Assembly (NCBI GenBank): GCA_050125095.1
Contig: JASFEA010000002.1
Coordinates: 69-64,068 of the forward strand
Source: a bacterium
GTDB taxonomy: Bacteria; Arandabacterota; Arandabacteria; Arandabacterales; JALGWA01
DNA: 64,000 nucleotides
Direction: 5' to 3'
In this document: one piece after another, positions 43,735 through 64,000 of the stretch
Numbering within the stretch: the first letter of the stretch is position 1
How the letters are laid out: each line of letters begins with the position of its first letter
Notes under the pieces: generated by a model
The model's database searches: none
The model's input: only the letters and a program-made list of their open reading frames with translations
What the model was told of the DNA's origin: nothing
Translations under genes and position numbers: made by a program

Positions 43735-44721
43735 CTACCATCTCAATCTCATGGAGATCCTGTGGACGCCGCTGAAGACGCCGAACTCGGTATAAGCGTA
43801 GTCGACGGCGGTGGCGCCGAAGGACGTGTCCAGCTTGACGCCGGCGCCGCCTGATATGCCCATTTCCTCCGCGTTGGTGGTATAGCCCATCCTCACGAAC
43901 ACGGTGTTGTTCCAGCCGTATTCGCCGCCGAGGTGAACCCGCTCGGAGTAATCGGTAGGATGGGTGGCGTCCAGGGCCATGGTGAGCACGCTGTTCTGGC
44001 CGAATTCCCAATCGTAGGCAATGCCCAGCCGGAAGTTGAGGGGCAGGTCATTGCTCCCGAACATGCGCACTTCCTCTATATGCGATGTGCCTATGTAGTA
44101 CTTGTCTGTATACGACCCGTCGTAAACGAGGTCCGGGCCGAAGTTGGTGGTCGCCATCGCCAGCCTGAGCGAGTTAAATCCGGTGTGGTATACCGTGCCG
44201 AAGTCAAAGGCGACTCCCCTGGCGCTGTAGTCGTAGATCGACTGGTCGATGTATTTGAACGTTCCCCCGACATAGAGCATGTCGGTCCACCTCTTGGCGT
44301 ATGTGAAACCGACGGCTATGTCCCGGGCCGTGAAGGTGCCGGAGGCCTCAGTGGAGGAGTGCTCGCTCACCAGCTGCATTTCGCCGTAATCGGCCGTAAG
44401 AACGCTGAACGCGAAAGTGCCGAGCTCTTTGTACTTGAAAGCATAGGCACCGCCTATGAGCCTGACGTCAGCCAGCCATTCGGCATCGCTCACGAAGACT
44501 TCATCCCCGTCCAGGCCCGCCAGCCCGGCCGGGTTGCTGAACACCGAGGGCGCGCCCCAGACGCTGGCAGCATAGGCCTCGCCCATGGCCACTCCCCTCG
44601 AATCTATGCCTATCTTAAGAAACAGGGCGCTGGAACTTCCCACCTTGTCAACGGCCGCTGACGCAGTGCCGGCGCCCGCGAGCAGGGCACATATAGCGGC
44701 CAGCGCGATCGTCTTCCTCAT
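43735..44721 (-). CDS. FadL-fold outer-membrane beta-barrel, PorV/PorP-like (T9SS-associated candidate), module 1
   Basis: 328 aa. Signal peptide, N-terminal motif KVGSSSALFLKIGIDSRGVAMGEAYAA…SNPAGLA (shared by FadL/PorV-type barrels), and a C-terminal aromatic residue (…RLRW). It is a paralog of 59138..60115 and sits directly downstream of a T9SS-CTD protein. Confidence 0.5.
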   Translation of the reverse strand: MRKTIALAAICALLAGAGTASAAVDKVGSSSALFLKIGIDSRGVAMGEAYAASVWGAPSVFSNPAGLAGLDGDEVFVSDAEWLADVRLIGGAYAFKYKELGTFAFSVLTADYGEMQLVSEHSSTEASGTFTARDIAVGFTYAKRWTDMLYVGGTFKYIDQSIYDYSARGVAFDFGTVYHTGFNSLRLAMATTNFGPDLVYDGSYTDKYYIGTSHIEEVRMFGSNDLPLNFRLGIAYDWEFGQNSVLTMALDATHPTDYSERVHLGGEYGWNNTVFVRMGYTTNAEEMGISGGAGVKLDTSFGATAVDYAYTEFGVFSGVHRISMRLRW

Positions 44722-44741
44722 GGTCAGGTCCTCCTTAGGTT

Positions 44742-46625
44742 TTATCGGTCACCACGTATGACTGCAAATTTGCCTATTGCTTCACCGTACTCGTCGCTCA
44801 CGACCCTGTAGATGTATATACCGCTCGCTATCGACATGTTGTTGTAGGTCAGCATGTCCCATCTCTCGCCGCCGGTCTCGCTCCCCTCGGTGTCGGGCGT
44901 CTCATCACCCGGCATATTGTGGTAGATGGTGCTTACGAGCTCGCCGGTAAGCGAATAGACGAATATGGAGCAGCGCTTGGGCAGGTTCTGGAACATGATG
45001 GTGCCCTCGAAGTCGCTCCTCTCCCAGTCGGCGCTCCCCCTGTAAGGATTGGGAGCCACGAGTATATTGTCGAGCGCGCGGGACTTCCTGCCCGCCATGC
45101 ATTCTTGCATGCATCTCTCATAGCATTCGTCACAGCCCTGGCAGTGCTCCGTGCAGTCGTACTCGCAGTCGCCGCTCCAGTCTGTGGGAAGCGTGGTGGC
45201 GACCACCCCGGTGAGGGTCTTTACGTCCCAGGCGCCCTTGGTGGTCTCGTTCTCATTGCTGTCATAGGCGGTTACGCAGTAGAAGGCCGGGAATCCGATC
45301 TTTACCGTATCAAGCGCGGCGTTTACGTAGGGCCTGCCGCTGTAGTCCCGGATCAGGTCCCAGGGACCCGTGTTGGAGACATAGCTCTTGTAGACCCTGT
45401 AGCCGGCGAAATCGGCGTCCTCTTCCGAGTCCGATTCCCACTCGAGGCTGACCAGCGTGCCCTCGAGAAGAGGCTCCTCGAGCACGGGGGCGCTGGGCGC
45501 CGGGTCGTCCACCTGGAGGCCGTTTGCGTAGAGGTGGCGCACCGCGTCCACGTGATCGACCAGCGTGCCCATATCAGACGCTCCGGCCCCGATCCTCCTC
45601 CAGTAATCGGCGTCGAAACCCTGCCCGAAGACAATGGCCATATAGAAGGTGGCCTCGTCCCCGGCCCGGGCCTCATAGGGGCCGACCGCGCTCAATATCC
45701 TGTAATCAAAAGGCGTGTCCGGCGGGTATTCCCTGATGGTCCCCGAGGAGATCCTGTCATAGGCGGCTGCGTGGCCGGTGGCGTCATTGTTCCAGTCCCA
45801 CCAGGTGAACGTCTCCCAGGTCGTCGACGGCGTGGGCGCCTCGGTCACCGAACCGCCCGGGGGCGGCGCGGAAAGGAGGATCTGGCCCACGTGCTGCGCC
45901 GAGAGGAGGCCGCTCGACGGATCGTCTATGATCGCCGGGTCGCCGTCATCGTCGTACATGTAGGCGATATCTCTTGTCTCGTCGTAGGCCGTCAGATCGT
46001 CATAGTAATAATCCTTGAGGCTGTTGTTGCCTATATCGCAGTCGGTCATCCAGCCCCACCAGTAGTGGTTGAGGTCCTTGGAAAATTCCAGGTCGACTTT
46101 GATGACTATGAAGTCGTCGTAGCGAGGGTCCTCCCACATCATATAGCGGGTGGTTACCTTCACGCCGAGGTCGCGCGGCGAATAGCCCGTGTCGAACTCG
46201 CTCTCGACATCCAGGTTGCTCTGGCCGGGGCTGGCGAAGGCGAAACCGCTGCAGACCGAATCGTAGATGTAGAAGTCGAGCTGGTCGAACGTGGCAGCGG
46301 CCACCCAGGGGTCTCCGGCCTCGTTCTCGTCGGCATAGCCGCCCATCCAGATGCCCGACTGGAAGACCTGCTGGTCCTGGCTCGCGCCCGGGTAATAGCC
46401 CGAATAGAGAGCCAGCCCGATGCTGTAGACCCCGGGATACCAGAGGTCGCCTATGGTATAGCTGGAGGTCACGCCGACACAGCTGGTCGGGGACGCCGTT
46501 CCCCCCAGGATCGCCGGCGCTTGACTCCCGAACTCCGCGATTACCGCCTCGTCGTAGGCCAGCGCCGAGTGGCCCGTCGCAAACAGCGCGAGCAGCACAA
46601 CCGCAATCCTCATGCTCAATCTCAT
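44742..46625 (-). CDS. secreted protein with C-terminal T9SS type-A sorting domain (Por_Secre_tail/FlgD-Ig-like), FN3-like region and Cys-rich insert; module 1 cargo
   Basis: 627 aa with a signal peptide. The C-terminus (ILVAPNPYRGS…FQNLPKRCSIFVYSLTGELV…RWDMLTYNNMSIASGIYIYRVV…GKFAVIR) fits the type-A CTD consensus. An FN3-like stretch (GYRVYKS…FYCVTAYD) is present. A 10-Cys cluster DCEYDCTEHCQGCDECYERCMQECM lies at ~45100..45190. It is a paralog of 60141..62255. Confidence 0.65.
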   Translation of the reverse strand: MRLSMRIAVVLLALFATGHSALAYDEAVIAEFGSQAPAILGGTASPTSCVGVTSSYTIGDLWYPGVYSIGLALYSGYYPGASQDQQVFQSGIWMGGYADENEAGDPWVAAATFDQLDFYIYDSVCSGFAFASPGQSNLDVESEFDTGYSPRDLGVKVTTRYMMWEDPRYDDFIVIKVDLEFSKDLNHYWWGWMTDCDIGNNSLKDYYYDDLTAYDETRDIAYMYDDDGDPAIIDDPSSGLLSAQHVGQILLSAPPPGGSVTEAPTPSTTWETFTWWDWNNDATGHAAAYDRISSGTIREYPPDTPFDYRILSAVGPYEARAGDEATFYMAIVFGQGFDADYWRRIGAGASDMGTLVDHVDAVRHLYANGLQVDDPAPSAPVLEEPLLEGTLVSLEWESDSEEDADFAGYRVYKSYVSNTGPWDLIRDYSGRPYVNAALDTVKIGFPAFYCVTAYDSNENETTKGAWDVKTLTGVVATTLPTDWSGDCEYDCTEHCQGCDECYERCMQECMAGRKSRALDNILVAPNPYRGSADWERSDFEGTIMFQNLPKRCSIFVYSLTGELVSTIYHNMPGDETPDTEGSETGGERWDMLTYNNMSIASGIYIYRVVSDEYGEAIGKFAVIRGDR

Positions 46626-46640
46626 CTCATACCTCCGTGG

Positions 46641-49247
46641 CTAAAACACCAGACGAAATCCTGCGCGAATCTCCCTCGGTCCCCCGTAGACCTTCACGTT
46701 GTTATACGGGCCGGTCCACGTGCCGTAGAGCCGCAGATATCTCATGAGGTCCGTATTGTCGTCGTTGAAATTGACGAGGTTCTTCTTGTCAAAGAGGTTG
46801 TAGACCTCCAGGAACACCTGCTCCTTCTGGGTGAAGAGCTGGAAGTCTTTGGACAGCCTCATGTTGACCAGGGAGATGTCCGGGAATCTCGCAGTGTTCT
46901 GCTCTGGCTGCAGCGACCTCGTTGCCTCGGTCGGCGTGTAAGGAGATCCCGTTGCATACTTGACCAGGAAGTTGATGGCCCAGTTGTCCACCCTGCCGTA
47001 GCCGATGTCGAATACCAGGCTGTGCCTCCTGTCCCAATCAAGGTAATACTCTCTCGTGGCGGCTTGGGTGCCGTCGAAGAGCTGGTTGTAGCCTTCGACC
47101 ACGTCCGAACTCCGTCCCTTGCCTATCATGAACGTATAGATGACGCGCCCCATCCACGACTCCTTGAAGCGCTTCCTCAGCGTGAACTCGAACCCCCTGA
47201 CGTTGCCGTAGTCGGTGTTCATGTAAGTCGTGTACTGCGTTGCGTCGGCGGGGGTGTCGACGTCCCTGGAGTCGTTGATGGTAACCGTGGATACCAGGTT
47301 GTCGAGGTTCTTATAGAAACCGGTAATGTCTATGACCATGCCCTCGGCCACCACGCTCTCGATGCCGACCTCGTATGAGACGGTCTTCTCGGGCTGCAGG
47401 TCCGGGTTTCCAACGAGCGGCCAGTGGCCGCCCATGTCGTACTTGGTGTTGGTGTAGAGGTATCCGAACGGCGGCACCTGGAAGTAATGGCCGTAGGCGA
47501 AGTGAAGCACGGAGGACTCGCCCACCGGATGCGAAATACCGAGCCTGGGGCTTACCCTGGCCTTGGTCGCCGCGTCCGTAAGATTCCACAGCGGGGGCTC
47601 CGTCGCGTCCGGCCCGGCGCACTCGGGGCCGGGGACCTGGACGCTGGGGTCCCACGGATAGGTCTCGTCGGAGGGTATCTTCATGGCCGGGGCGAACACG
47701 TCAAGCCGGAGGCCCGCGTTCACGATCAGGCCGCTGTACTCGATCTTGTCCTGAGCGTAGGCCACCGCATAGGTCGGTCTCACGAGATACTGGTTCTTGT
47801 ATATGTTGCCCGGGGACGCGTACACCTCATGATGCCTCGTCTTGTACCTGGTGTACTCGCCGCCGAGCTTGAACTGGTGGCTGCTGTTGGCCTGCAATGT
47901 GTAGCTTCCCCGGATGCTGTTCACGGTCGACTCGGAGTCGTGGAAGAGATTGTTGTCGCCGCCTATGATGAAGTTGTCCTCATCGTATACGGTGTTGAGA
48001 TCGATCCCGCCGCCGCCGTCTTCGACGGGTGTGGTGTTCCACTCCTGGGACTGATTCATGTCCCACCACCTGCCGGGCTGCGCGACATGGTAATTGGTCT
48101 CGAAGCGCGAGAATGAAATATCATAATACGAGCTGGTGCTGACCATATGGTTCATGCCCAGCACGGCCGCGAGGCTCCACCTGTCGTAACCCAGAAACGT
48201 CTCAGGAACGTACTGGCGCTGTGCGTTCCAGACGCTGAACTGAGTGTCATAGAACAGACCCTCGAAATAGAGCTTCACCCCGCCCGCCGGGAATCCCGTG
48301 AACTTCCAGATGGCCTGGGTGCGGTCGCGCCACTGATTATCGAGCACGTGCACGCGCGGATCCCAGTCGTCCCACTTCGAAGATTCCACCGACATGAAGT
48401 ACTTGAGGTCCTGCGTCCATGGGCTGGGCCCGCTCAGGCTCAGGGTGGCGGTCCTGTAGCCGGTGTCGTACTTGCCGGCGTCGTCGGCCGATTCCCAGAG
48501 GCCCTCGATGGGAAGATAGAAAGCTGTGCCGAATTCCCCGCGGAACTCCTGCCCGCCCTCCTTGGACACGACATTTACGATGGCGCTCTGGGCGTTGCCG
48601 TACTCGGGGTTGTAGCCGCCGGTCAGGATCATCATCTCCTGAATCGAGGCTTCGTCGTACCCCGCTGCGGCCTGCGAGAAAATGGGATCGAGAATCGACG
48701 CGCCGTTGATGGTATAGGCGACTTCGTTCTCCCGGCCTCCCCTTATGTGTATGCCCCTGCGGTCGGTCGTCGCGCCCGCCTGGAAGGAGACTATGTCGAA
48801 GGGCGTCTCGACCGGAAGCATCTCGATCTCATCATGTTCTATGATATTGAGCGAAGAAGTCTTGTCCTTCCGGATCAGCGGCCTCTCGGCGGTGACCACG
48901 ATCTCCTCGACCACGTCGAGGACGGCGGGACTGAGTTCGAAGTCGATGCTGCTCGTAAAGTCCGCGTTGACCGAGGCATCCGCCTTCATGATGGTCTCGT
49001 ATCCCATCATCGCCGCCTTGACGCTATACGTCCCCGGCGGGACATTGACGATGTGATAGCGGCCCTCGGGATTGGTGATCGCCCCCATCGTCGTACCGTC
49101 CAGGGTCACATTGACGGCGACGAGCGGTTCGCCCGTGTCACTGTCGACCACGATGCCTGCGACTTTACCGGCAGTGCCCGCCCACAGCGTCAGGGCGCCG
49201 CCGAAAAGCACGAACGCAAAAACAGCTAACGCCAGCCTTCTACGCAT
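46641..49247 (-). CDS. TonB-dependent receptor with N-terminal carboxypeptidase-regulatory-like domain (SusC/RagA-like architecture), module 1
   Basis: Signal peptide. CarbopepD_reg-like domain (GKVAGIVVDSDTGEPLVAVNVTLDGTTMGAITNPEGRYHIVNVPPGTYSV), a plug domain, a long barrel, and a C-terminal …GFRLVF. Start likely ATG at 49247, preceded by GGAGGGG 8 nt upstream; the ORF track gives 49262. Confidence 0.8.
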   Translation of the reverse strand: MRRRLALAVFAFVLFGGALTLWAGTAGKVAGIVVDSDTGEPLVAVNVTLDGTTMGAITNPEGRYHIVNVPPGTYSVKAAMMGYETIMKADASVNADFTSSIDFELSPAVLDVVEEIVVTAERPLIRKDKTSSLNIIEHDEIEMLPVETPFDIVSFQAGATTDRRGIHIRGGRENEVAYTINGASILDPIFSQAAAGYDEASIQEMMILTGGYNPEYGNAQSAIVNVVSKEGGQEFRGEFGTAFYLPIEGLWESADDAGKYDTGYRTATLSLSGPSPWTQDLKYFMSVESSKWDDWDPRVHVLDNQWRDRTQAIWKFTGFPAGGVKLYFEGLFYDTQFSVWNAQRQYVPETFLGYDRWSLAAVLGMNHMVSTSSYYDISFSRFETNYHVAQPGRWWDMNQSQEWNTTPVEDGGGGIDLNTVYDEDNFIIGGDNNLFHDSESTVNSIRGSYTLQANSSHQFKLGGEYTRYKTRHHEVYASPGNIYKNQYLVRPTYAVAYAQDKIEYSGLIVNAGLRLDVFAPAMKIPSDETYPWDPSVQVPGPECAGPDATEPPLWNLTDAATKARVSPRLGISHPVGESSVLHFAYGHYFQVPPFGYLYTNTKYDMGGHWPLVGNPDLQPEKTVSYEVGIESVVAEGMVIDITGFYKNLDNLVSTVTINDSRDVDTPADATQYTTYMNTDYGNVRGFEFTLRKRFKESWMGRVIYTFMIGKGRSSDVVEGYNQLFDGTQAATREYYLDWDRRHSLVFDIGYGRVDNWAINFLVKYATGSPYTPTEATRSLQPEQNTARFPDISLVNMRLSKDFQLFTQKEQVFLEVYNLFDKKNLVNFNDDNTDLMRYLRLYGTWTGPYNNVKVYGGPREIRAGFRLVF

Positions 49248-49355
49248 AGTGCACCCCTCCATGAATCCGTTTTTGTGGTTTTTGCCTTACTGACTAAGCC
49301 CTTGATAAATATCGGCCAGAAATCGGAGGGGCTTGAGAAAAACCGGAGGGTTATA

Positions 49356-49364
49356 AAGCGCTGT
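49356..49364 (-). promoter_or_regulatory. extended -10 promoter candidate (TGTTAAAAT) upstream of the module-1 TBDR operon
   Basis: Minus strand reads CTTGTTAAAAT, i.e. TG-n-TAAAAT, ~100 nt upstream of the TBDR start, in the 113-bp gap after the epimerase gene. Confidence 0.3.
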
Positions 49365-49375
49365 ATTTTAACAAG

Positions 49376-50407
49376 TTAGGATATGGGACGAACCCCTATT
49401 CCCGGAGCGTCGGTGAGTCTGAGTACGCCGCCCTGCCCCCGTATGCCCTCGAAGGGGTCGTCGGCTATGAGAAGATTGCCGTCCAGGTCGCAGAAGTCGA
49501 CAAGGGGCGCTATCTGCGCCGCGGCGCTTATGCCTACCGAGGTCTCAACCATACAGCCCAGCATGACCTTGAGGCCCGCGGCGCGGGCGGCGGCGATCAT
49601 TGCCAGCGTTTCCCTGATCCCGCCTGATTTCATGAGCTTTAGGTTCACGGCATGGGCGAGACCCGCCCATCCGAACACGTCCGCGGAGGAGGTCACGCTC
49701 TCGTCCACCATGATCGTAGACCCGCTTTCCGCCATGAGCCGCCGGTAACCCTCCGTGTCCGTCCTGGGAAGCGGCTGCTCGTAGAACTCTATGGAGTAGG
49801 CTTCATCATAGCGCGCCATCTTCTCCAGGGCGGTTTCGACGTCCCAGCCCTCGTTGACGTCCGCTCTAAGCACGGCATCAGTCTCGCCCCTCAGGAGATC
49901 GAGCAGTTCCCCCTCCCGCCCGAATCCCAGTTTCACCTTGAGAATCGGGTAGGATCTCAGGCGGTCCAACTGGCCTCTTATGAGGTCGACGTCCTCCACC
50001 CCGACCGTATAGGAGGTCTCTGGCGGATCCATGCCCGCGAGCCCCAGCATCTTATGAAGAGGGAGGCCGGCGGTCTTGCCCGCGACATCGTAAAGCGCGG
50101 TCTCCACGGCGGCCCTGCCCGACGGGCTCTCCGGGAACCTGGCTTTGAGAAGCCTCGAGGCCGCCGACAGAGCGAACGGGTCCTCGCCCGCTTCGGACCC
50201 CGAGAGCGCGGCTTCGGACTCCTCTATCGTACGCGCCGCCGCGTCTATGGAGTCGCCGTAGTAGGCCGATGGCGAGGCCTCCCCGTAGCCTGTGACTCCG
50301 CCGTGGTCGATCTCGGCGATCAGGACTTGCTTAACCGCCGTCGTTCCCCTCGCTATGGTGAAGGGTATTTCCAGGGTGAGTTTCTCAAGCCTGCATTTCA
50401 CTCTCAA
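49376..50407 (-). CDS. L-Ala-D/L-Glu (dipeptide) epimerase, enolase superfamily
   Basis: Enolase-superfamily layout with the KxK region (ILKVKLG), metal ligands, and the C-terminal barrel (…MLGCMVETSVGISAAAQIA…). Start likely TTG at 50407 with GGAGG 7 nt upstream, overlapping the DUF1611 stop. Confidence 0.7.
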   Translation of the reverse strand: MRVKCRLEKLTLEIPFTIARGTTAVKQVLIAEIDHGGVTGYGEASPSAYYGDSIDAAARTIEESEAALSGSEAGEDPFALSAASRLLKARFPESPSGRAAVETALYDVAGKTAGLPLHKMLGLAGMDPPETSYTVGVEDVDLIRGQLDRLRSYPILKVKLGFGREGELLDLLRGETDAVLRADVNEGWDVETALEKMARYDEAYSIEFYEQPLPRTDTEGYRRLMAESGSTIMVDESVTSSADVFGWAGLAHAVNLKLMKSGGIRETLAMIAAARAAGLKVMLGCMVETSVGISAAAQIAPLVDFCDLDGNLLIADDPFEGIRGQGGVLRLTDAPGIGVRPIS

Positions 50408-51492
50408 TATGGTGCCTCCACGGCCCGGGCGATCCGCCCGCACCCCCACCTTATCACATCGGCGACGGGAAGCCCGGTCAGGTCTTCGAGGCGCGCGGCC
50501 TCCCGCTTTGCGGGTGCTTCCTCCATGTCGAAGGTGTTTATGGCCACGCCCACCACGCGGGACGGGTGCACGAGTCCCGCGACATCCTCATGGAGCTTTA
50601 TGAGATCCGGAAGCGGCGGGATGCTGACGTCGTAGCCGGGTATGGCGGTTCTGGTCGGCTGGTGACACAGTATCATGGCGTCCGGACAGCTGCCGTGCAT
50701 AATTCCCAGGGCCACGGCGGAATAAGCCGGGTGTATGAGCGACCCCTGCCCCTCCACTATGGCGAGGCCGGCCCGCCCGAGGGCCTCCGTTGTTATGTTC
50801 TCGGTCACGGCCGACATGAAATCCCCCGGAACGCGGTCCACCGCTTCCCCCCAGCCTGCGAGCATTATGCCCGTCTGGCCCGTGGGCACGAACTCGGCGC
50901 GGGAGCCGCTCCGGTTCAGGAAACGGGCGAGCTCGAATGCAACCGTCATTTTGCCGATCCTGCAGTCGGAGCCCACAGTGAGCACCACCCTGCCCTTCTT
51001 GCGGCGCAGCGAACCCGAAGCGATGGTGTCGGGAACCCGGGGCACGCGCACGTCCCATATCCTCACCCCCGCCTCCGCGGCGGCACTCGATATCTCATCA
51101 TCTTCCCCCATCACGTGATGCAGGCCGTTGACGATGTCGAGGCCCCCGGCTATGGCCTTAAGGACCACCCCCCTCCACTCCGCGGGAAGCGCGCCTCCCC
51201 TCGGCGCGATCCCTATGAGCAGGGCGTCGGGCGAGCGGGCCAGCGCCTCCTCTATGGTGGCGACCACGGGGATTCCGCCCCCGAAGCCCAGCACATCCTC
51301 CACAGACGCCCCGGCCCGCGTGCTGTCGATGACACATGCTACGCGCTCCGGGACGTACCTTATGACGCATGCGGCAGTCTTCGAAGTGATGACGCCGAAC
51401 TCGCCCTGGGCGAGAATAGCCAGGCGCCCGTACTTATCTATGCGATCGGCCTTGTCGCCCACGCGAATCTCTCCCTGAGGTCGGCCCTGCAA
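50404..51492 (-). CDS. DUF1611-family protein (DgcN-like; partner of dipeptide epimerases)
   Basis: 362 aa. The pattern …GKMTVAFELARFLNRSGSRAEFVPTGQTGIMLAGWG… and the size match DUF1611. It sits immediately upstream of and overlapping the epimerase, the arrangement usually seen for this family. Confidence 0.5.
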   Translation of the reverse strand: MQGRPQGEIRVGDKADRIDKYGRLAILAQGEFGVITSKTAACVIRYVPERVACVIDSTRAGASVEDVLGFGGGIPVVATIEEALARSPDALLIGIAPRGGALPAEWRGVVLKAIAGGLDIVNGLHHVMGEDDEISSAAAEAGVRIWDVRVPRVPDTIASGSLRRKKGRVVLTVGSDCRIGKMTVAFELARFLNRSGSRAEFVPTGQTGIMLAGWGEAVDRVPGDFMSAVTENITTEALGRAGLAIVEGQGSLIHPAYSAVALGIMHGSCPDAMILCHQPTRTAIPGYDVSIPPLPDLIKLHEDVAGLVHPSRVVGVAINTFDMEEAPAKREAARLEDLTGLPVADVIRWGCGRIARAVEAPY

Positions 51493-55679: not shown

Positions 55680-55689
55680 CTGAACGCTC

Positions 55690-56109: not shown

Positions 56110-56126
56110 TTCTCTCTCCCCTGCTC

Positions 56127-56531: not shown

Positions 56532-56533
56532 CT

Positions 56534-57427
56534 CTATTCACCTACCTTGGGCGGCTGCATCTTGCCGAGAATGACAAGCGTATCCACCAGGTCAGCACTT
56601 GATTCTTCCATCTCGATAATGAACCGGTCGATCTGGGACACGAAGTAGTTATGGAAGGTCTGCATCGGGATGGCGATGATGAGACCCGTCGCAGTGGTGA
56701 TAAGAGCCTCCGAGATACCGGAGGCCACGAGCTTGGCGTTTACCTGCTCGGCTTCGGCGATGGCGTTGAACGCCCTGATCATACCCGACACCGTCCCGAG
56801 GAAGCCCAGGAGCGGCGCCACCGTGGCGACGGTCGAGAGCCAGATGAGGCCCCTCTCCAGGAACGAGGTCTCCACGGTCCCGGCGGCGACGATGGACCTC
56901 TCTACCGCCTCGGTACCCATGTCGGCCCGCTTGAGACCGGCGTGAAGAATGCTGGCGATCGGGCCTCTCGTCCTCTCGCACTCCTGTGCGGCGGCTTCGA
57001 CACCCTTTGAGTGGAGCGCGTCGAGCACTTTCTTCATGAGCCGGCGTGTATCGGTGCGTGCGCGCGTCAACGTTATGAGCCTTTCAATGATAACGGCCAC
57101 GCCGATGATGGACGTGACCAGCAGAGCGTACATGAAGTTCCCGCCCTTGAAGAAGAGTGTCACGAGCCCGCTCTCTCTGAGCCGGGTCATCATGCCGCCT
57201 TCGGGCATTTCGGCCTCTTCAACCGGAGTCTCCACCGAAGCCAGAAGGTCAGCCAGAGAACTGTCGACCTGAGCTTCCATAGCGGCTCCTTCAGCACCTT
57301 CGGCGCCCTCCTCGGCGGTCGCCCCGGCTGCCTCCGCAGATCCCTCCTGAGCAAGGCAGAAACCTGCGACTGAAATTACGAGCATACTGATGACGATTAG
57401 GGACACCCAGATCCTGACGTGAGTCAT
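56534..57427 (-). CDS. exbB: MotA/TolQ/ExbB proton-channel protein with cleavable signal peptide and acidic N-terminal periplasmic extension
   Basis: Start chosen at ATG 57427, preceded by AGGAG 8 nt upstream: MTHVRIWVSLIVISMLVISVAGFCLA. An Ala/Glu/Gly-rich ~60-aa region follows, then three TM helices of the MotA/ExbB family (…LGFLGTVSGMIRAFNAIA…). Confidence 0.8.
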   Translation of the reverse strand: MTHVRIWVSLIVISMLVISVAGFCLAQEGSAEAAGATAEEGAEGAEGAAMEAQVDSSLADLLASVETPVEEAEMPEGGMMTRLRESGLVTLFFKGGNFMYALLVTSIIGVAVIIERLITLTRARTDTRRLMKKVLDALHSKGVEAAAQECERTRGPIASILHAGLKRADMGTEAVERSIVAAGTVETSFLERGLIWLSTVATVAPLLGFLGTVSGMIRAFNAIAEAEQVNAKLVASGISEALITTATGLIIAIPMQTFHNYFVSQIDRFIIEMEESSADLVDTLVILGKMQPPKVGE

Positions 57428-57524
57428 TGACAAATCTCCTTGATTGGCTGTTGACCCAGAACGCACTACCCTTGTAGGGATGGCATTCAACGATTACCTA
57501 AAAGAAGCAAAATCAACTCTCAAA

Positions 57525-57560: not shown

Positions 57561-59153
57561 TTAGTGCTCGTGTTTCTCGGTGCTGTAGATCAGGCGGTAG
57601 TTGCCATTCCCGGTCTCATCGGCGAATATGAAGCGCACTCTCGCCTGGGTGGAGGAGCGCTTGGCAAGCCGCCTTACCGGATTGCCTGGACCTTCATAAG
57701 TCCATATCTCGTAGGCTTTTCCATGCACGGTCTCCCCCCCGCGCTGGTCGAGATGTTCGTCGGTTTCTCCGGTAGTCCTGGTGTAACCCCCAGTCCCCTG
57801 CCCCCCCGACTCCAGAAACTCGCGCGAGTACGGGTCTGTCAGCACCGGTTCGGTCCCGCCGCCTATATCGCGCGTGCCCTGTACGAACTCATAGTCCGAG
57901 AAGTGGCTCTGTATGTCGTCGGGAGGCCCGTACTTTATGTAAAGCCTGCCCATGTCCGAAAGGGCGCCGCGCACCTCGGTCGAGTAGTGAAGATCGGCGT
58001 AGTGCACTCGCCTGTAGTGCTCCTCCAGGGCCTCGTTTCCAAGCGTGCCCGGGCTGGGGTCCAGCTCGGTCCAGAATTCGGTGAGGTACTGCTCGCGGGC
58101 CCCCGTGGAGAGAGCCCTGAATTCCTCCATCTCGTCTTCCTTCATTATATACAGCATGTCCTCCTCGACCTCATGCCCGTACTTGCCCCAGGAGAGCACC
58201 GTCCATGCGATATCGAACTTGGCCTGGGTCAGAGCGAGCCTGGCCCCGTCCGAATCCAGGGCCTCCACCCTGAGGAGATAGGTGCCGGCCGACAGCGAGC
58301 TTATGTCGAAGAGGGCCGCGTTGCCCACGCTCCAGCCCTCAATCGCCACCGTTCTCTGGTCTCTGAATATGGTGTCGCCCGTCGTGTTGATAATGGAGTA
58401 CGCCGTCACCAGGCTGTCGCCCGCGCCCTCCTCGGTGAAATCATAGATCTCATAGAAAAGCGAGAGCTCGTTGACCAGCAGGCCATACAGCCGGCTCGGA
58501 TTGGGGACCACCTCGTAGCCCGATTTCTCGAAGAGCCCGCTGGAGCGCCTGGATATGCTCCTCGCGAACTCGATGTCGCTCATGGCCACGGCTCCCCTCT
58601 CGAAGTCCCTGGAGACGACATTCATCTCGGCCATGCCCGTGTTCTTCTTCTTCAGAAGGTAGGAGACTATGGCCTTCTTGAGGGCGTTCTGGTCCTCTAT
58701 GGTGACTTTCACGGTGTATTGACCGGGGCTCACTTCGAAGCTCGACTCGAATACCTGGATTATGGTCCGGTCGGCTGTCTCGTTTTCGGTGTCGGCGAAG
58801 ACCTCCACTTCCTTCTCGGTCCGCGCCACCTGGGCGCCGTCCATGTCATATACGACGACTTCATAGATGAGATCGCCCTTAAACCTTGTCTGCCTGTCTA
58901 TGAACTCGATCTGGTCATTGGATACGACGCAGTACACTTCCTCCGTATTCCTGCCATCCGAGCCATAGAAGGTCACCACGTCCGCGTGGAAGATTATGTC
59001 CCCCTCGCTCGGCCGCGGGACCTCCTGGTCCGCGACGGCCTGCCGGGGTCCGACTGCCGCAAGGGCTGCGGCGGCAAATAGAATCAGGGGCAGCCTTGAG
59101 CCGGCCGCCCCTGCTTTAGATTTTAGATTGCACATATTTAGAAATTCGCCCAC
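57561..59153 (-). CDS. GWxTD-domain secreted protein, paralog 2 (divergent motif, C-terminal insertion)
   Basis: 530 aa. It aligns with paralog 1 by eye: TEFWTELDPSPGT vs DEFWKEKDPTPDT; LEEHYRRVHYADLHYSTEVRGALSDMGRLYIKYGPPDDIQS vs FYDEHVRRFDTANVRFGAPQTAGWKTDRGRIYIIYGEPDQIES; ARVRFIFADETGNGNYRL vs RRFVFVDELGFGDYRL. It overlaps the upstream PorV-like gene by 16 nt. Confidence 0.65.
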   Translation of the reverse strand: MGEFLNMCNLKSKAGAAGSRLPLILFAAAALAAVGPRQAVADQEVPRPSEGDIIFHADVVTFYGSDGRNTEEVYCVVSNDQIEFIDRQTRFKGDLIYEVVVYDMDGAQVARTEKEVEVFADTENETADRTIIQVFESSFEVSPGQYTVKVTIEDQNALKKAIVSYLLKKKNTGMAEMNVVSRDFERGAVAMSDIEFARSISRRSSGLFEKSGYEVVPNPSRLYGLLVNELSLFYEIYDFTEEGAGDSLVTAYSIINTTGDTIFRDQRTVAIEGWSVGNAALFDISSLSAGTYLLRVEALDSDGARLALTQAKFDIAWTVLSWGKYGHEVEEDMLYIMKEDEMEEFRALSTGAREQYLTEFWTELDPSPGTLGNEALEEHYRRVHYADLHYSTEVRGALSDMGRLYIKYGPPDDIQSHFSDYEFVQGTRDIGGGTEPVLTDPYSREFLESGGQGTGGYTRTTGETDEHLDQRGGETVHGKAYEIWTYEGPGNPVRRLAKRSSTQARVRFIFADETGNGNYRLIYSTEKHEH

Positions 59154-60115
59154 AGGGATATCTTATGCGAGGTTCCCAGGAGCCCGAAATCCGAGAAACC
59201 GTAATCTACGCCCCAGATGGAGGGCTTGTTGGTCAGTCCGATCCTCACGAACGGGAACTTCACGCCGAAGCCGCCTGTGAGACCTTCTTCATCCCTGTTG
59301 AACCTGTAACCGCCTCTGACAGCGACCTCGAAGTTGGGCCCGTATTTCTGATACACATACTCCCCGCCGAGGTTAATGCGCTCGGCTCCGTCCGGCGGAT
59401 GGTTGAACTCGAAGGCGCCCAGGAACCTGTGGTCCGGGACGTCCAAGAGGGGCATGGACGCGCCCACCTTGAAGGTGATGGGCATGGGGCTCTCCTTGCC
59501 GTCATCGCGGAACTTGTAGCCGGCCCCCATGTTCTGGAAGCACATGCCCAGCTTGATGCCCTTGAACCCGGTGTCGTAGAGCGTCCCCAGGTCCACCGCG
59601 AAAGTCTCGCCGCTGTAATCCGCAAGTCCTTCGTGGATCCACTTGAGAGTGACTCCGAAGGAAAACCTGTCGGTAAACATATTGGCATACGTCAGAGCGA
59701 AGGCCATGCTGCCCGCATCGAAGGAGTAGCCCGTACCGTCCGGCCTGTACTCCGTGGTCTCGGGCATCGGGTCCATCTGAAGGACCGTGGCGCTGACGCC
59801 CAGGACTCCCGGCAGGAACTTGTATGAGAAGACATAAGTGGCGAACTCATGGCTTATCTCCGCCGGCCAGCTGCCGTGGCTGAGATTGAACTCGCTCCCT
59901 TCGATGAGAGCTATGCCCGCGGGATTCCAGTAGATGGCTGTCGCGTCATCCGAAACCGCCACGAAGGCCTCGCCCATGGCAATAGCGCGGGCCCCCACTC
60001 CGATCTTAAGGAACTGGGCTCCGACCGTCCCGACCTTCTCGAAGATCTCCGCGGACCAGCTAGTCGCACCAATGACCAGTATCAGCGTCACCGCGACAGT
60101 CAGCGTTCTCTTCAA
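59138..60115 (-). CDS. FadL-fold outer-membrane beta-barrel, PorV/PorP-like (T9SS-associated candidate), module 2
   Basis: 325 aa. Signal peptide, motif KVGTVGAQFLKIGVGARAIAMGEAFVAVSDDATAIYWNPAGIA, and C-terminal …ISLWANF. It is a paralog of 43735..44721. Confidence 0.5.
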   Translation of the reverse strand: MKRTLTVAVTLILVIGATSWSAEIFEKVGTVGAQFLKIGVGARAIAMGEAFVAVSDDATAIYWNPAGIALIEGSEFNLSHGSWPAEISHEFATYVFSYKFLPGVLGVSATVLQMDPMPETTEYRPDGTGYSFDAGSMAFALTYANMFTDRFSFGVTLKWIHEGLADYSGETFAVDLGTLYDTGFKGIKLGMCFQNMGAGYKFRDDGKESPMPITFKVGASMPLLDVPDHRFLGAFEFNHPPDGAERINLGGEYVYQKYGPNFEVAVRGGYRFNRDEEGLTGGFGVKFPFVRIGLTNKPSIWGVDYGFSDFGLLGTSHKISLWANF

Positions 60116-60140
60116 AGTACTCCTCCTTCCTTCCTCTCTC

Positions 60141-62255
60141 CTATCTGACCACGACGAACTTGTTGATTTCCGTACCCAGAGGTGATTCCGTATGGACTAT
60201 ATATATTCCGCTAACGATTTCCTGGTTGTTCCTCGATACGAGGTTCCATCCCGGCGGCTCGCCGCTGGGGTCGGTGGGGTCCTCGAAGTACCTCTCCCAT
60301 ACGAGGTCGCCCGAGAGGCTGTATATCCTCACTGTGGCCTGCCGCGGCAGGTTGAGGAAGCGGACCCTCCTGCCGGACGGGTCCCTTTCATACTCTACCA
60401 TGTCTCCTATCGCGTGGCCCGTCTGCCTGGCCTCTTCGCTCATGCCCGGATAGGGATTGGGCACTATGCGGACCTTGCCCGTAACCCTCGCCGGCGTCCC
60501 TCTGGGATAGACCAGCTGCATCGACTGCGAGTAACTCCCGTAACGGGGCACGGGCGTCAGCTCTCCCGTGGCGGGATTCCTGATGACCTCCGCGCTGCCG
60601 TCGTCGTACGCCGTGACGGCATACCAGTACGGAATACCGTTATGGACGTCCGAATCCACATAGCGGTACTTGCCTATGCCGTTCAGGCCGGTATCTACGA
60701 GCGGCAGGTCCTTCTTGTTGATGTCCATTAAGAGCTGCCACTGGTCGGCCGACGGCACCTCGCTCTCATGCCTCCAGCCCTTGGCTTTCCAGATGCGGTA
60801 GCCGTCGAAGTCGTACACGCGCTGCAGCGGGTCCGGCACCGTCTCGGAGTAATCGTCCCACTCGATGAAGATCTTGCCGTCCCCCGCGATGAGTCTCTGC
60901 TTGGGCGGAGGGGGCGGGCTCGAGCCCAGCCAGTTGACGAAGACCTGCTGGCCTCCGGGACCCGCCATTGGCCCGCCGTTATAGACTTTCTGGGCGTTGG
61001 TGGCGTTCGCTATGAGGTCGCTGAAGGGGTCGCCGCATACGAAGGCGACCTGGAAAACCAGCGTGCTTCCGGCCGGAATCTCGGCGAAACGGCCCGCGGA
61101 TACGAGGAACCTGTAGTCCGCCGCCTTGGTCGTCGGGGGGTCTATGGTCTTCTCGGTGTCCGACACGCCCCTCATATAGCGGTACCTCTCCTTGTCGTTC
61201 TCAGGGTCCTGCTCGCCGCTCGACCAGCGTTTGAACATATGAATGCCGACCTCGGACGGCGCCAGGTTGCCCTGCGGGTCGGTAGTATGCCCGAGGAACA
61301 TTACCCCGATATATCCGGGCACATCGCCGTCTTCACCCCCGGGGTAGTCGTACATATAGCCCATGGTGATGTGATAGTCCACCGCTACCTCGCCCCCCTC
61401 CGGGCTTATTTCACGGCGGATTACGGTGGTGTCTATATAGGCGGCCATGTCGTCCACGTAGGACTGCGGGACCTGGCGCACCGGGCCCACGTCGCCGTCC
61501 ACCATGAAGGCGATATAGGCGTTATGGATGGAGCGGTCGCCGTCATTGGTGACCTTGTATTCGATACCTATGAAGTCCTCTATAGCGGGACTGGTCCACG
61601 CGTAGCTCTCCTGCCTGACCTTCAGGTAGAGAGGCACATGGAAGTCCTCTGTCCTGGTCCTGTTAAAAGAGGTCGCCGAGTCGTAGAAGACGGCCGTATA
61701 CATCTGCTGGGAAATGGCGGCGAAGTCCTCGTCCACAAGGCCGTCGCCGTCATTGTCATAGCCGTCGAGCGGGTCCTCGTCATAGAGGTTGTCGGCGTCA
61801 TCGTCCTGCAGCCTGTTTCCGCTTGGCTGCCCCTCGAAAGTCTCGTAGACGATGTCCCTGGGGTCGGGCTTGGGATAGAACTCGAGCTGGTAGACAGCCG
61901 CGGTGACGAGCGTGTCCTCTCTTCCGCTCTCGCGCACGACGCCGCCCACCCACAGACCCGCGGCAAACAGGTACTCGATGCTGCTGCCGGCGGGCCACTC
62001 GCCCGACGGCGAGGTCGGGTCCGCATTGTAATCCCCGAGCATGCCGAGGTTGGAGGTATGCAGGAGGAGCTGGTTCACATTGTGGTATATGCCCCTGAAC
62101 CTGACGAGCCCCTGCTGGCCCTCGAGCCCGGGATCGTCATATACCGCCTCCTCATAATAGGCCAGCGCGCCCGCGGCCATGAGCGCAGCGAATAGTGCGG
62201 CGATCACCGGAATCCTCAAGACCGGCATCCGGCTCGCCCTCTTCTTGTTGTCCAT
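60141..62255 (-). CDS. secreted protein with C-terminal T9SS type-A sorting domain; module 2 cargo (paralog of 44742..46625)
   Basis: 704 aa with a signal peptide. Shared N-terminal motifs with the module-1 cargo (ALAYYEEAV; GLWVGG; GYRIWKAKG…YAVTAYDDGS FN3-like). CTD …VRIVPNPYPGMS…FLNLPRQATVRIYSLSGDLV…GWNLVSRNNQEIVSGIYIVHTES…NKFVVVR. Confidence 0.65.
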   Translation of the reverse strand: MDNKKRASRMPVLRIPVIAALFAALMAAGALAYYEEAVYDDPGLEGQQGLVRFRGIYHNVNQLLLHTSNLGMLGDYNADPTSPSGEWPAGSSIEYLFAAGLWVGGVVRESGREDTLVTAAVYQLEFYPKPDPRDIVYETFEGQPSGNRLQDDDADNLYDEDPLDGYDNDGDGLVDEDFAAISQQMYTAVFYDSATSFNRTRTEDFHVPLYLKVRQESYAWTSPAIEDFIGIEYKVTNDGDRSIHNAYIAFMVDGDVGPVRQVPQSYVDDMAAYIDTTVIRREISPEGGEVAVDYHITMGYMYDYPGGEDGDVPGYIGVMFLGHTTDPQGNLAPSEVGIHMFKRWSSGEQDPENDKERYRYMRGVSDTEKTIDPPTTKAADYRFLVSAGRFAEIPAGSTLVFQVAFVCGDPFSDLIANATNAQKVYNGGPMAGPGGQQVFVNWLGSSPPPPPKQRLIAGDGKIFIEWDDYSETVPDPLQRVYDFDGYRIWKAKGWRHESEVPSADQWQLLMDINKKDLPLVDTGLNGIGKYRYVDSDVHNGIPYWYAVTAYDDGSAEVIRNPATGELTPVPRYGSYSQSMQLVYPRGTPARVTGKVRIVPNPYPGMSEEARQTGHAIGDMVEYERDPSGRRVRFLNLPRQATVRIYSLSGDLVWERYFEDPTDPSGEPPGWNLVSRNNQEIVSGIYIVHTESPLGTEINKFVVVR

Positions 62256-62275
62256 TGACCTGCCCTCCGTTGCGA

Positions 62276-64000
62276 TTACCAGTCGAATGAAACGCCGACC
62301 TTGAAACTGCGTGGCGGTGAGTAGACACGCGGGTCATAGATGGGCACGTATATGACTTCCTGTATGCCCAGAAGCTCGCCCTCGTCATACGCGCCGCCCA
62401 GTTCTCCCTCTGTCGTATAGTACGCCGTGTAGTTTCCTGAACCGCCCGGCCAGCTGCCCGGGTTCATGTTGGCTATGTTCTGAGTGTCCAGGATGTTCCT
62501 GCCTTCGAGGAACAGCGAGATCTCCTGCCCCGCGATCCTGAACCTCTTGTCGGCTCTCACGTTGATCGTGCTCCTGGCCGGGAGCCTCTCCGAGTTGATG
62601 AGCTCCGCCCGGACCTCCCTCTCCCTGGGGTAAATGGGCGTATACGGACGGCCGGTAGAGTAGTTCCAGTCCAGGTTGGCGCCCCAGAGGCCCGGCTCGC
62701 TGAGATAGAAGTTGGCGCTGAAGACGTGGTTCCTGTCCCAGTCCAGAGGCAGCTCGGTGATGGGAGCGCGGTCGAGGCCGCCGCCCACAACATTGGCGCC
62801 CTGGAGCTCGTTGGAGCTCGACCCTGTCGCCTGGGAGAACGTATAGGTGAAACCTCCGGAGAAGCGGTGGCTGAACCTCTTGGTCAGCTTGAACTCGATG
62901 CCCCTTACGGACCCGTAGTCCATATTGACGTAGACCACGGGTTCGGCCGTCGGCCCGTAGATCTGCTGGAACTCCGAATCCTCCACCAGGTCGCCGGCCC
63001 TGGTTCCCACCAGGCCGAATATGTCCTTGTAGAACATGGCTATGTCGCCGACCAGCGTATTGCTGAACTGGTGCTGAATGCCGATCTCATAGGAGATGGT
63101 CGTCTCGGCGTCCATGAGCGGGTTCCCGAAGGGCAGGAGGCCCGTCTCCGTCTGGCCGAGGAACTGGAACAGCACCTCGAGCCTCGGTATCTGGTAGAAC
63201 CTTCCGTAGTTGAAGTACAGCGCGTCCCTCTCCGATATGGGATAGGAGACGCCCAGCCTCGGGCTGATCTGCCACTCGGTCCTGTCCAGGAAGCTGTCGG
63301 GCTCCCTCGTCTCCAGCGTCTGGAAGAGGAAATCGTTATAGGCGTCGACGGCGTCCTTGCCAGGGTCGAAGAGGTCGAGCCTCAACCCGGCCCTCACGTT
63401 CATACCCTCGAACTTGATCCTGTCCTGCAGGAATGCCGAGAGGCCCCAACAATTGAACTTGTAGATATCGGTGAACACGCCCAGGGGACTGTCGTAGGAC
63501 GGGTAAGTGATATCCATCATCTCGAGCCTGTAGTAGTTGAACTCGCCGCCGAACTTGACCTGATGCGTGACGCCTTTCTGTATGGTCATGTCCGCCTTGG
63601 CGGTGGACATACGCGTTTCATAGCGCTGGTAGTAAGGGAGGTCGCCCGTCACCATGAAGTACCTGTTCTCCGGGTCCAGCCGTTCGTTCTGCGACGGCGT
63701 GACGTACTGGTAGGGCTCCTTGTCCAGCACCTGCTGCCTGCTGAGAGTCTTGTAGGTCCCGATCCTCGCCGTGTAGAACGAAGTCGGGCTCAGCGTGTGG
63801 TTCCACACGAACTTGAACTGGTTGTGACTGGTGTTGACGTCCGGCGTATGGGCCGGGGCGATGTACAGCGTGTAAGTCGAATCCAGCGGCTCAAACCACC
63901 AGTGCTCCAGGGTCTCCGACCAGTAGCCCACCCTGCTCATGGAATGATTGTACCTGTCGAACTTGCCGCCCGAAGACAGCATCTCGAAAGACAGCTTCTT
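62276..64000 (-). CDS. TonB-dependent receptor, C-terminal ~575 aa (gene start lies beyond window end), module 2
   Basis: The reading frame is open through position 64000; the ORF-track M at 63982 is internal. It has barrel-region similarity to the module-1 TBDR (…RAGLRLDLFDPG… vs …NAGLRLDVFAPA…) and a C-terminal …KVGVSFDW. Confidence 0.7.
   Translation of the reverse strand, partial: KKLSFEMLSSGGKFDRYNHSMSRVGYWSETLEHWWFEPLDSTYTLYIAPAHTPDVNTSHNQFKFVWNHTLSPTSFYTARIGTYKTLSRQQVLDKEPYQYVTPSQNERLDPENRYFMVTGDLPYYQRYETRMSTAKADMTIQKGVTHQVKFGGEFNYYRLEMMDITYPSYDSPLGVFTDIYKFNCWGLSAFLQDRIKFEGMNVRAGLRLDLFDPGKDAVDAYNDFLFQTLETREPDSFLDRTEWQISPRLGVSYPISERDALYFNYGRFYQIPRLEVLFQFLGQTETGLLPFGNPLMDAETTISYEIGIQHQFSNTLVGDIAMFYKDIFGLVGTRAGDLVEDSEFQQIYGPTAEPVVYVNMDYGSVRGIEFKLTKRFSHRFSGGFTYTFSQATGSSSNELQGANVVGGGLDRAPITELPLDWDRNHVFSANFYLSEPGLWGANLDWNYSTGRPYTPIYPREREVRAELINSERLPARSTINVRADKRFRIAGQEISLFLEGRNILDTQNIANMNPGSWPGGSGNYTAYYTTEGELGGAYDEGELLGIQEVIYVPIYDPRVYSPPRSFKVGVSFDW

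Follow-up and report, generated by a model that had tools for sequence, protein, structure and literature searches.

Duplicated gene modules encoding a TonB-dependent receptor, a protein with a type IX secretion-like C-terminal domain and a PorV/PorQ-family barrel: conserved organization and a possible role in uptake

Organization of the Two Modules

The stretch of DNA examined in this work, which we will refer to as the window, is 64,000 nucleotides (nt) long and corresponds to positions 69-64,068 of the forward strand of contig JASFEA010000002.1 (GenBank assembly GCA_050125095.1). From 43.7 kb to its end at 64 kb, this window is occupied by a single conserved supercluster of genes on the minus strand, within which the same set of three genes occurs twice. 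In both of these modules, a gene for a TonB-dependent receptor (TBDR) is followed by one for a protein that we will call X and then by one for an outer-membrane barrel (B). The two minus-strand trios, with intergenic gaps of 15, 20, 20 and 25 nt, were found at the coordinates that an initial annotation of this DNA had given for their open reading frames (ORFs), and these are listed in Table 1 with the other features of interest. For TBDR1, the ATG at 49247, which is preceded at a distance of 9 nt by the sequence GGAGG, is preferred as the start, because this GGAGG overlaps the alternative ATG at 49262. The complete form of TBDR2 is encoded on a contig from the same species (L089), which also encodes an identical B2; it is 899 amino acids (aa) long and consists of CarboxypepD_reg, Plug and barrel domains.

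The initial annotation had also proposed that all three components are related pairwise between the modules, and BLASTP comparisons bear this out. TBDR1 and TBDR2 show 30% identity (E = 4e-60), X1 and X2 show 24% identity in an alignment that extends over their full length (E = 4e-26), and B1 and B2 are 33% identical (E = 2e-51). As judged from similarities that are far above the level expected by chance, the two modules are thus paralogous in each of their parts. A scan of the region for promoters and terminators was uninformative, as fewer sites were found than in shuffled sequence, and a search with a sigma-54 pattern gave no site upstream of TBDR1 and no enrichment in the window as a whole (29 sites vs. 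about 50 expected).

Table 1. Positions of the module genes and of other features in the 64,000-nt window
Feature	Position	Strand	Description
TBDR1	46641-49247	-	868-aa TonB-dependent receptor, N-terminal CarboxypepD_reg extension
X1	44742-46625	-	627 aa; shorter X2 paralogue, same architecture
CTD of X1	44742-45089	-	C-terminal domain, ~112 aa; VAPNPY...GKFAVIRGDR
B1	43735-44721	-	328-aa PorV/PorQ-family barrel
TBDR2	62276->64000	-	C-terminal 574 aa; N-terminus beyond window end
X2	60141-62255	-	704 aa; signal peptide and three domains
CTD of X2	60141-60488	-	C-terminal domain, ~115 aa; end ...NKFVVVR
B2	59138-60115	-	325-aa PorV/PorQ-family 14-stranded barrel
GWxTD protein a	57561-59135	-	TIGR04514, 88.7 bits; fourth gene of module-2-type loci
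ExbB	56534-57490	-	Pfam MotA_ExbB
ExbD (first)	56127-56531	-	Pfam ExbD
ExbD (second)	55690-56109	-	Pfam ExbD
TonB	55068-55679	-	Pfam TonB_C
TolC-like outer-membrane factor	53550-54857	-	PF02321, 217 bits; TIGR01844, 162 bits (under cut-off)
GWxTD protein b	52247-53500	-	Pfam match
NlpC/P60+SH3 peptidase	51438-52229	-	Pfam match
DUF1611 protein	50404-51492	-	Pfam match
MR_MLE dipeptide-epimerase-like protein	49376-50449	-	Pfam match
SprA/Sov translocon homologue	344-6382	-	2012 aa; TIGR04189, 508.6 bits (cut-off 200); PF14349, 78.5 bits

The Receptor

TBDR1 is matched in Pfam by PF00593 (113.7 bits), PF13715 (65.1 bits) and PF13620 (62 bits), with Plug just under its cut-off (23.7 vs. 23.9 bits), whereas the part of TBDR2 present in the window is matched by PF00593 (111.6 bits) and PF25183 (51.6 bits). 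Plug and barrel domains are also found in the gene calls of receptor orthologues and in the full-length TBDR2, and in both TBDR1 and full-length TBDR2 (L089) the plug is preceded by a CarboxypepD_reg extension. Both proteins are thus TonB-dependent receptors in the general sense, with Plug and TonB_dep_Rec barrel domains and a Ton motor encoded nearby. The initial annotation had described the receptor as a SusC/RagA-type transporter with an N-terminal extension (NTE), and although the receptor identity and the extension are upheld, the SusC/RagA assignment is not. The CarboxypepD_reg domain is not specific for SusC/RagA, and the SusC/RagA model TIGR04056 gives a score of 46.9 bits vs. a cut-off of 368.25, with a match confined to residues 33-152, i.e., to the N-terminal extension. 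What defines the Oar subclass among TonB-dependent transporters is an N-terminal extension of the PF13620 type (PMC6434023), and for the present receptor the name Oar-type or NTE-type transporter is more appropriate. The statement that no SusD-like gene follows the receptor is in agreement with our results: X, the product of the gene directly downstream, has neither a SusD match in Pfam nor a lipobox cysteine.

The Middle Protein X

No Pfam family was assigned to X1 or X2 in a Pfam scan, and a sequence profile of the X family gave no match in the PDB; informative matches came from the comparison of folds alone. The signal peptides of both proteins are of type I and lack a lipobox cysteine. In an AlphaFold2 model of X2 (mean predicted local distance difference test score, pLDDT, 74.4; predicted template modelling score 0.69), three domains can be distinguished: a beta-supersandwich of about 400 aa (residues ~50-440), an FN3-like domain (~450-560) and a C-terminal beta-sandwich that forms the C-terminal domain, or CTD (~590-704). 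At the level of the fold only, the first of these matches the galactose-mutarotase-like beta-supersandwich found in the N-domains of glycoside hydrolase (GH) families GH15, GH65 and GH94 and of related enzymes; the other Foldseek matches of the model include FN3 tandems and PorU. No catalytic domain is joined to the supersandwich, and across 37 X homologues the invariant positions are occupied mainly by Asp, Trp and Gly and never by Ser, His or Cys, a pattern which we count toward a putative role in binding.

The members of this family range in size from about 530 to more than 1500 aa, and their N-domains are very variable in length. Among the matches listed, none of 240 X-family homologues has a Pfam family, and where a name is given, which is the case for only a few, it is nearly always "hypothetical protein", with two named "T9SS type A sorting domain-containing protein", where T9SS stands for type IX secretion system. 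X2 also contains an acidic, DxDxDG-rich loop (residues ~139-181; 61713-61841, minus strand), DDDADNLYDEDPLDGYDNDGDGLVDEDF, which is near-invariant in the X2 clade, is modelled with a pLDDT below 50 and is apparently absent in X1. We take this loop to resemble calcium-binding repeats of the thrombospondin type 3 kind.

The C-Terminal Domain of X and Its Relationship to Type IX Cargo

A phmmer search with X1 of 1.84 billion representative proteins yielded 2357 clusters (50% identity) at E <= 0.001. The majority of these 2357 matches cover only residues ~513-623 of X1 and lie at the extreme C-terminus of targets that are 100-1600 aa in length. The motif series xPNP[YF] ... G[KR]F..I[RK] is located C-terminally in 122 of the 149 best representative matches, with the motifs arranged in the order PNP ... 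IY.L.G.LV ... SG.Y.Y ... GKF..I[RK]-end. When a profile made from 40 X-type CTDs was compared with the PDB, the only matches were to PorZ (5m11, residues 671-758, E = 6.7e-5, end to end), to PorU (6za2) and to a cargo CTD in an SprA complex (8glj_D). Similarly, 38 of these 40 CTDs match the C-terminus of PorZ and 37 that of PorU, while 39 match the type-A sorting-domain model TIGR04183 at E <= 0.1 (best value 4.8e-8). X1 itself is weakly matched at the C-termini of PorU and PorZ.

In the initial annotation, the tail of this protein was described as a type-A T9SS CTD. Its identification as a T9SS-type domain is upheld at the profile level, but the type-A cut-off is reached by neither X1 nor X2 themselves, and PF18962, which represents type-A CTDs, was not matched by either of them in the Pfam scan. 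As the individual tails are sub-threshold, yet the profile of 40 X-type tails matches T9SS CTDs, the X tail is best regarded as a longer (105-115 aa), divergent relative of the type-A CTDs. Type-B CTDs were considered as well and were rejected, as TIGR04131 gave weak matches to only three of the 40 CTDs (best value 0.0043). Two results suggest that the X tail may form a distinct sub-class of CTD: a canonical CTD protein encoded on a related Eisenbacteria chromosome scores above the TIGR04183 cut-off (38.6 bits), and for 148 of the 149 best X1 representatives, most of which were matched through the CTD, the best match among the loci fetched is the X gene of a trio. The long tail thus seems to be confined for the most part to the X superfamily.

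A homologue of SprA/Sov, the translocon of the T9SS, is encoded in the same window, which makes export of X by this system plausible. About 45 nt upstream of the start of this SprA gene there is a sigma-54-like element, TGGCATGGAACTTGC (6427-6441, minus strand, one mismatch), and an rpoN gene is present at 18002-19414.

The Barrel

The scores of B1 and B2 with NF033709, which represents the PorV/PorQ family, are 193.3 and 188 bits, well above the cut-off of 90, and both contain the GxxAR..MGEA..NPAG motif that the initial annotation had included in its description of a small FadL/PorV-like barrel. That description is therefore retained, and the possibility raised at the same time, that these barrels belong to an unrelated porin family, is set aside by their membership of the PorV/PorQ family. 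The NCBI name of the B2 cluster is likewise "PorV/PorQ family protein", the sole sequence match of B2 in the PDB is the PorV of Flavobacterium johnsoniae, and in an AlphaFold2 model (pLDDT 82.6) B2 has a 14-stranded FadL fold that includes an N-terminal hatch and resembles PorV most closely. However, neither barrel reaches the equivalog cut-offs for PorV (NF033710; 57.3 and 76.2 bits for B1 and B2, respectively, vs. 250) or PorQ (NF033711; 95.4 and 96.4 bits vs. 220), on which account B1 and B2 are placed in a separate sub-family. The PorV2 equivalog is failed by both as well. An identity as PorP/SprF barrels was rejected, since in the NCBIfam scan only PorV/PorQ-type models were matched and no PorP/SprF family was found at E <= 0.01. 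In a collection of clusters at 90% identity, over 3000 homologues of the barrel are present at E <= 1e-10.

Conservation and Co-Diversification of the Trio

To examine the distribution of this arrangement, relatives of X were sought in one genome per GTDB species. Of the 358 that were found, the loci of the best 80 were analysed by searching the proteins of the window against six-frame ORFs, and 52 of these loci were non-redundant and had enough flanking sequence to be testable. The order TBDR-X-B on one strand is present in 44 of the 52, comprising 41 that were recognized automatically and three (L014, L020 and L025) with the same order and artefacts at ORF boundaries. The genomes carrying it are labelled as Eisenbacteria, Krumholzibacteriota, Fibrobacteraceae, Marinimicrobia, WOR-3, Ignavibacteria, Zixibacteria, KSB1, Calditrichaceae, or as "Bacteroidetes" or "Cytophagia" metagenome-assembled genomes (MAGs), and the relatives of the window itself are labelled Candidatus Eisenbacteria/Eiseniibacteriota or, in some cases, Gemmatimonadota. 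The same trio order was seen in independent gene calls from relatives, and the same arrangement was recovered when the search was started reciprocally from homologues of the barrel. Comparison with related genomes had been suggested in the initial annotation as a check of the gene order, and its outcome is that this order is conserved in many phyla, among numerous uncultured relatives of the Bacteroidota. Every named homologue is from a MAG, and no cultured carrier was identified, with the genome matches covered being the best 80 of 358.

Departures from this arrangement were of several kinds. In seven loci, neither neighbour was found at X, and four of these (L009-L012) are orphan X2-like paralogues in Eisenbacteria; these four loci are very GC-rich, and independent gene calls were used for L011 (= L084). 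In L084, which is on the same contig as L011, the orphan X gene adjoins TPR, FG-GAP/ASPIC and GH113 genes. A tandem pair of X genes is located upstream of the barrel in L047 and L053, with an upstream receptor detected only in L047. The locus L086 is rearranged, with the order X, a Por_Secre_tail protein, an uncharacterized 510-aa protein, receptor and PorV-like barrel, and the three gene types are still together in it.

Distance matrices calculated for the TBDR, the N-domain of X, the CTD and the barrel from 52 triads were strongly correlated (Mantel r 0.86-0.94), with none of 2000 permutations giving a value as high, and the clusterings of the trio proteins were congruent (adjusted Rand index 0.68-1.0). 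The correlated distances and congruent clusters indicate that the trio has diversified as a unit. Modules 1 and 2 represent old paralogous lineages, each of which has orthologues in other phyla.

The Wider Supercluster and Neighbouring Genes

In the direction of transcription, the supercluster consists of TBDR2, X2, B2 and a GWxTD gene; ExbB, two ExbD genes and TonB; a TolC-like gene; a second GWxTD gene with the NlpC/P60+SH3, DUF1611 and MR_MLE genes; and TBDR1, X1 and B1. The Ton motor block (55068-57490) is thus located between the two modules; in relatives, too, this block comes after the module, and the position of the TolC-like gene is kept there as well. In the WOR-3 locus L042, the genes ExbB-ExbD-ExbD-TonB lie directly upstream of the trio. 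The set formed by GWxTD b, NlpC/P60, DUF1611 and MR_MLE precedes TBDR1-X1-B1 in the loci L057, L061, L068-L070 and L074, and the placement of the last three of these genes directly upstream of module 1 is a conserved feature in Eisenbacteria.

In addition to the three genes of the initial description, module 2 contains a fourth one that is tightly coupled to them, that for GWxTD protein a. Its likely start is at 59135, only 2-3 nt past the stop codon of B2 (59138-59140), and a GWxTD gene directly follows the barrel in loci from Eisenbacteria, Krumholzibacteriota and Fibrobacteraceae, while in the KSB1 loci L078 and L080 such genes are located upstream of the receptor. The N-terminal region of GWxTD protein a shows a weak internal match to TIGR04183 (27.9 bits). 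A candidate terminator after B2, a strong GC-rich hairpin of 11 pairs with a terminator-like score (59113-59085, minus strand), was rejected, because the hairpin at 59085-59113 lies inside the region that encodes the signal peptide of GWxTD protein a. The word GWxTD was not found in the literature searched.

In Eisenbacteria relatives, genes for Opp-type ABC transporters (L001, L002 and L087) and TldD/PmbA peptidases recur beside the cluster. The combination of an NlpC/P60+SH3 peptidase with an L-Ala-D/L-Glu epimerase resembles the murein-peptide recycling genes ykfABCD of Bacillus subtilis. The Eisenbacteria neighbours point weakly to the scavenging of peptides or muropeptides in this lineage. 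In the locus L085, by comparison, the neighbours are GH130, sugar isomerase and M61 peptidase genes.

Elsewhere in the window, genes related to the outer membrane and lipopolysaccharide (LPS) are spread over 7784-37840. They include those for LptF/G (7784-8980), an LptB-like ABC ATPase (19438-20166), LptC (20159-20734), a lipid A acyltransferase (20701-21597), KdsB (25730-26497) and BamD/YfiO (36881-37840). No tRNA and no Rfam match was found in the window. Plus-strand ORFs at 15884-17173, 21542-23351 and 26697-28013 (429, 433, 168 and 438 aa) had no Pfam match, and the first of them (15884-17173), which was the only one covered by the NCBIfam scan, had no match there either; in sequence of 60% GC, some of these long plus-strand ORFs may be spurious shadows of minus-strand genes.

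Relationship to Known Systems

The modules resemble the SusC/SusD and RagA/RagB systems in their gene order, the gene for a surface partner coming directly after that for a TonB-dependent transporter with an N-terminal CarboxypepD_reg extension, and in that multiple, diverged modules, which look substrate-specific, are present within one genome. They differ from them in that the receptor fails the SusC/RagA model and a third gene, for a PorV-like barrel, is obligatory; moreover, SusD is a helical lipoprotein, whereas X is all-beta, has a signal peptide of type I and ends in a T9SS-type CTD. Another case in which the surface partner of a TonB-dependent transporter is not SusD-like is BtuB-BtuG, where BtuG is described as a surface lipoprotein that caps the transporter BtuB (PMC10404256); a protein of this kind, being a lipoprotein, is not a T9SS cargo.

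With respect to the other half of the module, the closest parallels are PorZ-PorQ and PorU-PorV, where a retained type-A-like CTD docks on a 14-stranded barrel of the PorV/PorQ family, as we propose for X. The profile of the X CTD is closest to the CTDs of PorZ and PorU, and B1 and B2 share an NCBIfam family with PorQ and PorV. In contrast to these pairs, X lacks the beta-propeller of PorZ and the C25-like peptidase of PorU, B1 and B2 fail both equivalog cut-offs, and the genes for X and the barrel are adjacent, tied to a receptor operon and present in several paralogous copies. To our knowledge, the porQ and porZ genes are not adjacent to each other. Clustering of a cargo gene with the gene for a dedicated PorV-like barrel is likewise characteristic of type-B CTD proteins and PorP/SprF (e.g., SprB-SprF in Flavobacterium), and it has been proposed that the PorP/SprF barrel anchors the type-B cargo and protects its CTD (PMC10202324). 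However, the CTD of X resembles type A, its barrel is of the PorV/PorQ family, and the unit includes a TonB-dependent receptor. A further case of a FadL-fold, 14-stranded barrel is BamG, the extracellular loops of which hold a surface protein (PMC12578637); BamG and BamH differ from the present pair in being members of the BAM machinery with no link to a TonB-dependent receptor.

The Oar protein of Myxococcus xanthus, which is required for the secretion of PopC, resembles the receptor in its PF13620 extension and in having the genes for a dedicated Ton motor close by (PMC6434023), but it has no CTD-bearing partner and no PorV-like barrel, its transport is outward, and its host has no T9SS. As judged from these sequence comparisons, the module lies outside the SusC/RagA family, the PorV/PorQ equivalogs and the type-B/PorP system, and by analogy it may be viewed as combining the principle of a transporter with a surface partner (SusCD, RagAB, BtuBG) with that of a CTD cargo with a cognate PorV-like barrel.

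The absence of any described system with this organization, as claimed in the initial annotation, accords with our literature search: no description of the receptor-X-barrel arrangement was found in the full-text literature searched, in which most subscription journals are not covered, and the Caldithrix genome paper contains no mention of it. The arrangement is widespread and unnamed.

Proposed Mechanism and Alternative Explanations

We propose that each module encodes a three-part outer-membrane uptake unit in which the surface partner of the receptor would be anchored by a barrel and not by a lipid, and the chances that this is correct we regard as about even. In such a unit, X, with its type I signal peptide and no lipobox, would cross the inner membrane via Sec and then, recognized by its CTD, the outer membrane via the T9SS. 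The CTD would be retained, neither cleaved nor attached to LPS, and would dock on the outer face of its cognate barrel, the product of the next gene, as the CTDs of PorZ and PorU do on PorQ and PorV, respectively. The barrel would thereby tether the supersandwich and FN3 domains of X at the cell surface beside the receptor, where X could capture a polymeric substrate and pass it on. The receptor would import this substrate, powered by the ExbB-ExbD-TonB proteins of the same cluster, inward being the presumed direction of transport. The initial idea of a capture module, with a T9SS-displayed protein in the place of SusD, fits the conserved gene order, the fold of the X N-domain and the PorZ/PorU-like CTD. 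There is also precedent for its separate elements, as type-B cargo genes cluster with those of their cognate PorP/SprF barrels, and PorQ and PorV carry the CTDs that are retained by PorZ and PorU, respectively (PMC10202324). Concerning the substrate, the modelled fold of X weakly suggests a glycan or glycopeptide, and the neighbouring genes in Eisenbacteria suggest, also weakly, murein-derived or other peptides.

Several observations weigh against this proposal. Taken by themselves, X2 (16 bits) and the CTD of X1 (16.1 bits) fall below the TIGR04183 cut-off of 23, and of the T9SS core components the analysis, confined to the 64-kb window, covered SprA alone. The orphan X2-like paralogues (L009-L012 and L084; about 47% identity) are without an adjacent receptor or barrel, so that a dedicated neighbour is presumably not essential for X to function or to be anchored. 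The genes beside the module vary between phyla (Opp transporters and peptidases, GH130, sugar isomerases), and no single substrate is therefore indicated. Lastly, in partial Mantel tests the correlation of the CTD with the barrel, given the receptor, was 0.26 vs. 0.45 for the CTD with the receptor, given the barrel, and there is thus no CTD-barrel excess beyond the shared history of the trio; this result neither supports nor refutes contact between the two.

Some of the same observations are accommodated by a different explanation, which is that the trio is co-regulated and its products are physically independent. X and the barrel would then be a T9SS-displayed adhesin or enzyme, and the receptor would import its products or share its regulation, with X having no role as a lid. 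The orphan X paralogues, the tandem X genes or altered order in L047, L053 and L086, and the lack of a contact-specific signal in the partial Mantel tests are all in its favour. Nevertheless, we consider it unlikely, as the gene order and gaps of 15-25 nt have been kept across phylum-level distances, the three proteins have co-diversified, the old duplication included, and X lacks both an invariant Ser, His or Cys and a catalytic domain on its supersandwich. That unrelated outer-membrane genes have come to lie side by side by chance in this genome has a negligible probability: it is refuted by the conservation of their order across many phyla (44 of 52 loci), with which the reciprocal test started from the barrel agrees, and the trio has been duplicated as a unit within the window.

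A reversed direction of transport must also be considered, in which an Oar-like receptor would secrete X by means of the adjacent ExbBD-TonB and the barrel would anchor it, so that the module would be a T9SS-independent display unit. Such a function would explain why there is one receptor per X-barrel pair and would be in keeping with the Oar-subclass PF13620 extension of the receptor, its PF25183 match and the Ton motor inside the cluster, which in WOR-3 is directly upstream of the trio. This explanation is rather improbable in view of the homology of the X C-terminus to T9SS CTDs and the presence of SprA in the window. An N-terminal extension is, furthermore, also standard in the importing SusC/RagA transporters, and Oar-mediated secretion is a single known case, the cargo of which, PopC, has neither a CTD nor a barrel partner. 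Less probable still, in our assessment, is that X and the barrel are envelope machinery analogous to the PorZ-PorQ/PorU-PorV attachment complex or to BamG-BamH, with a role in cargo attachment or outer-membrane biogenesis. The closeness of the X CTD profile to the CTDs of PorZ and PorU, the higher scores of the barrels on PorQ than on PorV models, the resemblance of the module-2 locus, with its Ton motor and TolC-like gene, to a single-copy core locus, and the abundance of LPS and outer-membrane biogenesis genes in the window could be read in this manner. However, neither complex is known to include a TonB-dependent receptor, and X lacks the beta-propellers of PorZ and the peptidase domain of PorU. 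The occurrence of at least two diverged modules per genome, of orphans and of variable N-domains is, moreover, the pattern of substrate-specific systems and not that of one core machine.

The proposal of a barrel-anchored uptake unit can be extended to the whole Fibrobacteres-Chlorobi-Bacteroidetes (FCB) group. The trio would then represent an unrecognized, FCB-wide class of TonB-dependent uptake system, whose substrate-binding partner, in place of a lipoprotein, would be a T9SS cargo that a third class of CTD, specific for the cognate barrel, keeps permanently bound to a barrel of its own. This extension is offered tentatively, and we think it somewhat more apt to be wrong than right.

Significance

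If these proposals are correct, they would explain how the partners of TonB-dependent transporters are placed on the cell surface in lineages other than the Bacteroidota. The idea that a cognate PorV-like barrel retains the CTD of its cargo would apply to a large family of cargo proteins, in addition to the type-B adhesins and to PorZ and PorU, two components of the T9SS machinery, and the T9SS would be linked mechanistically to the import of nutrients. A concrete three-protein complex would be available for modelling and purification in research on both the T9SS and TonB-dependent transporters. In addition, the annotation of the potential for polymer degradation would be improved for abundant uncultured phyla of sediments and soils, among them Eisenbacteria, Zixibacteria, KSB1, Marinimicrobia and Krumholzibacteriota.

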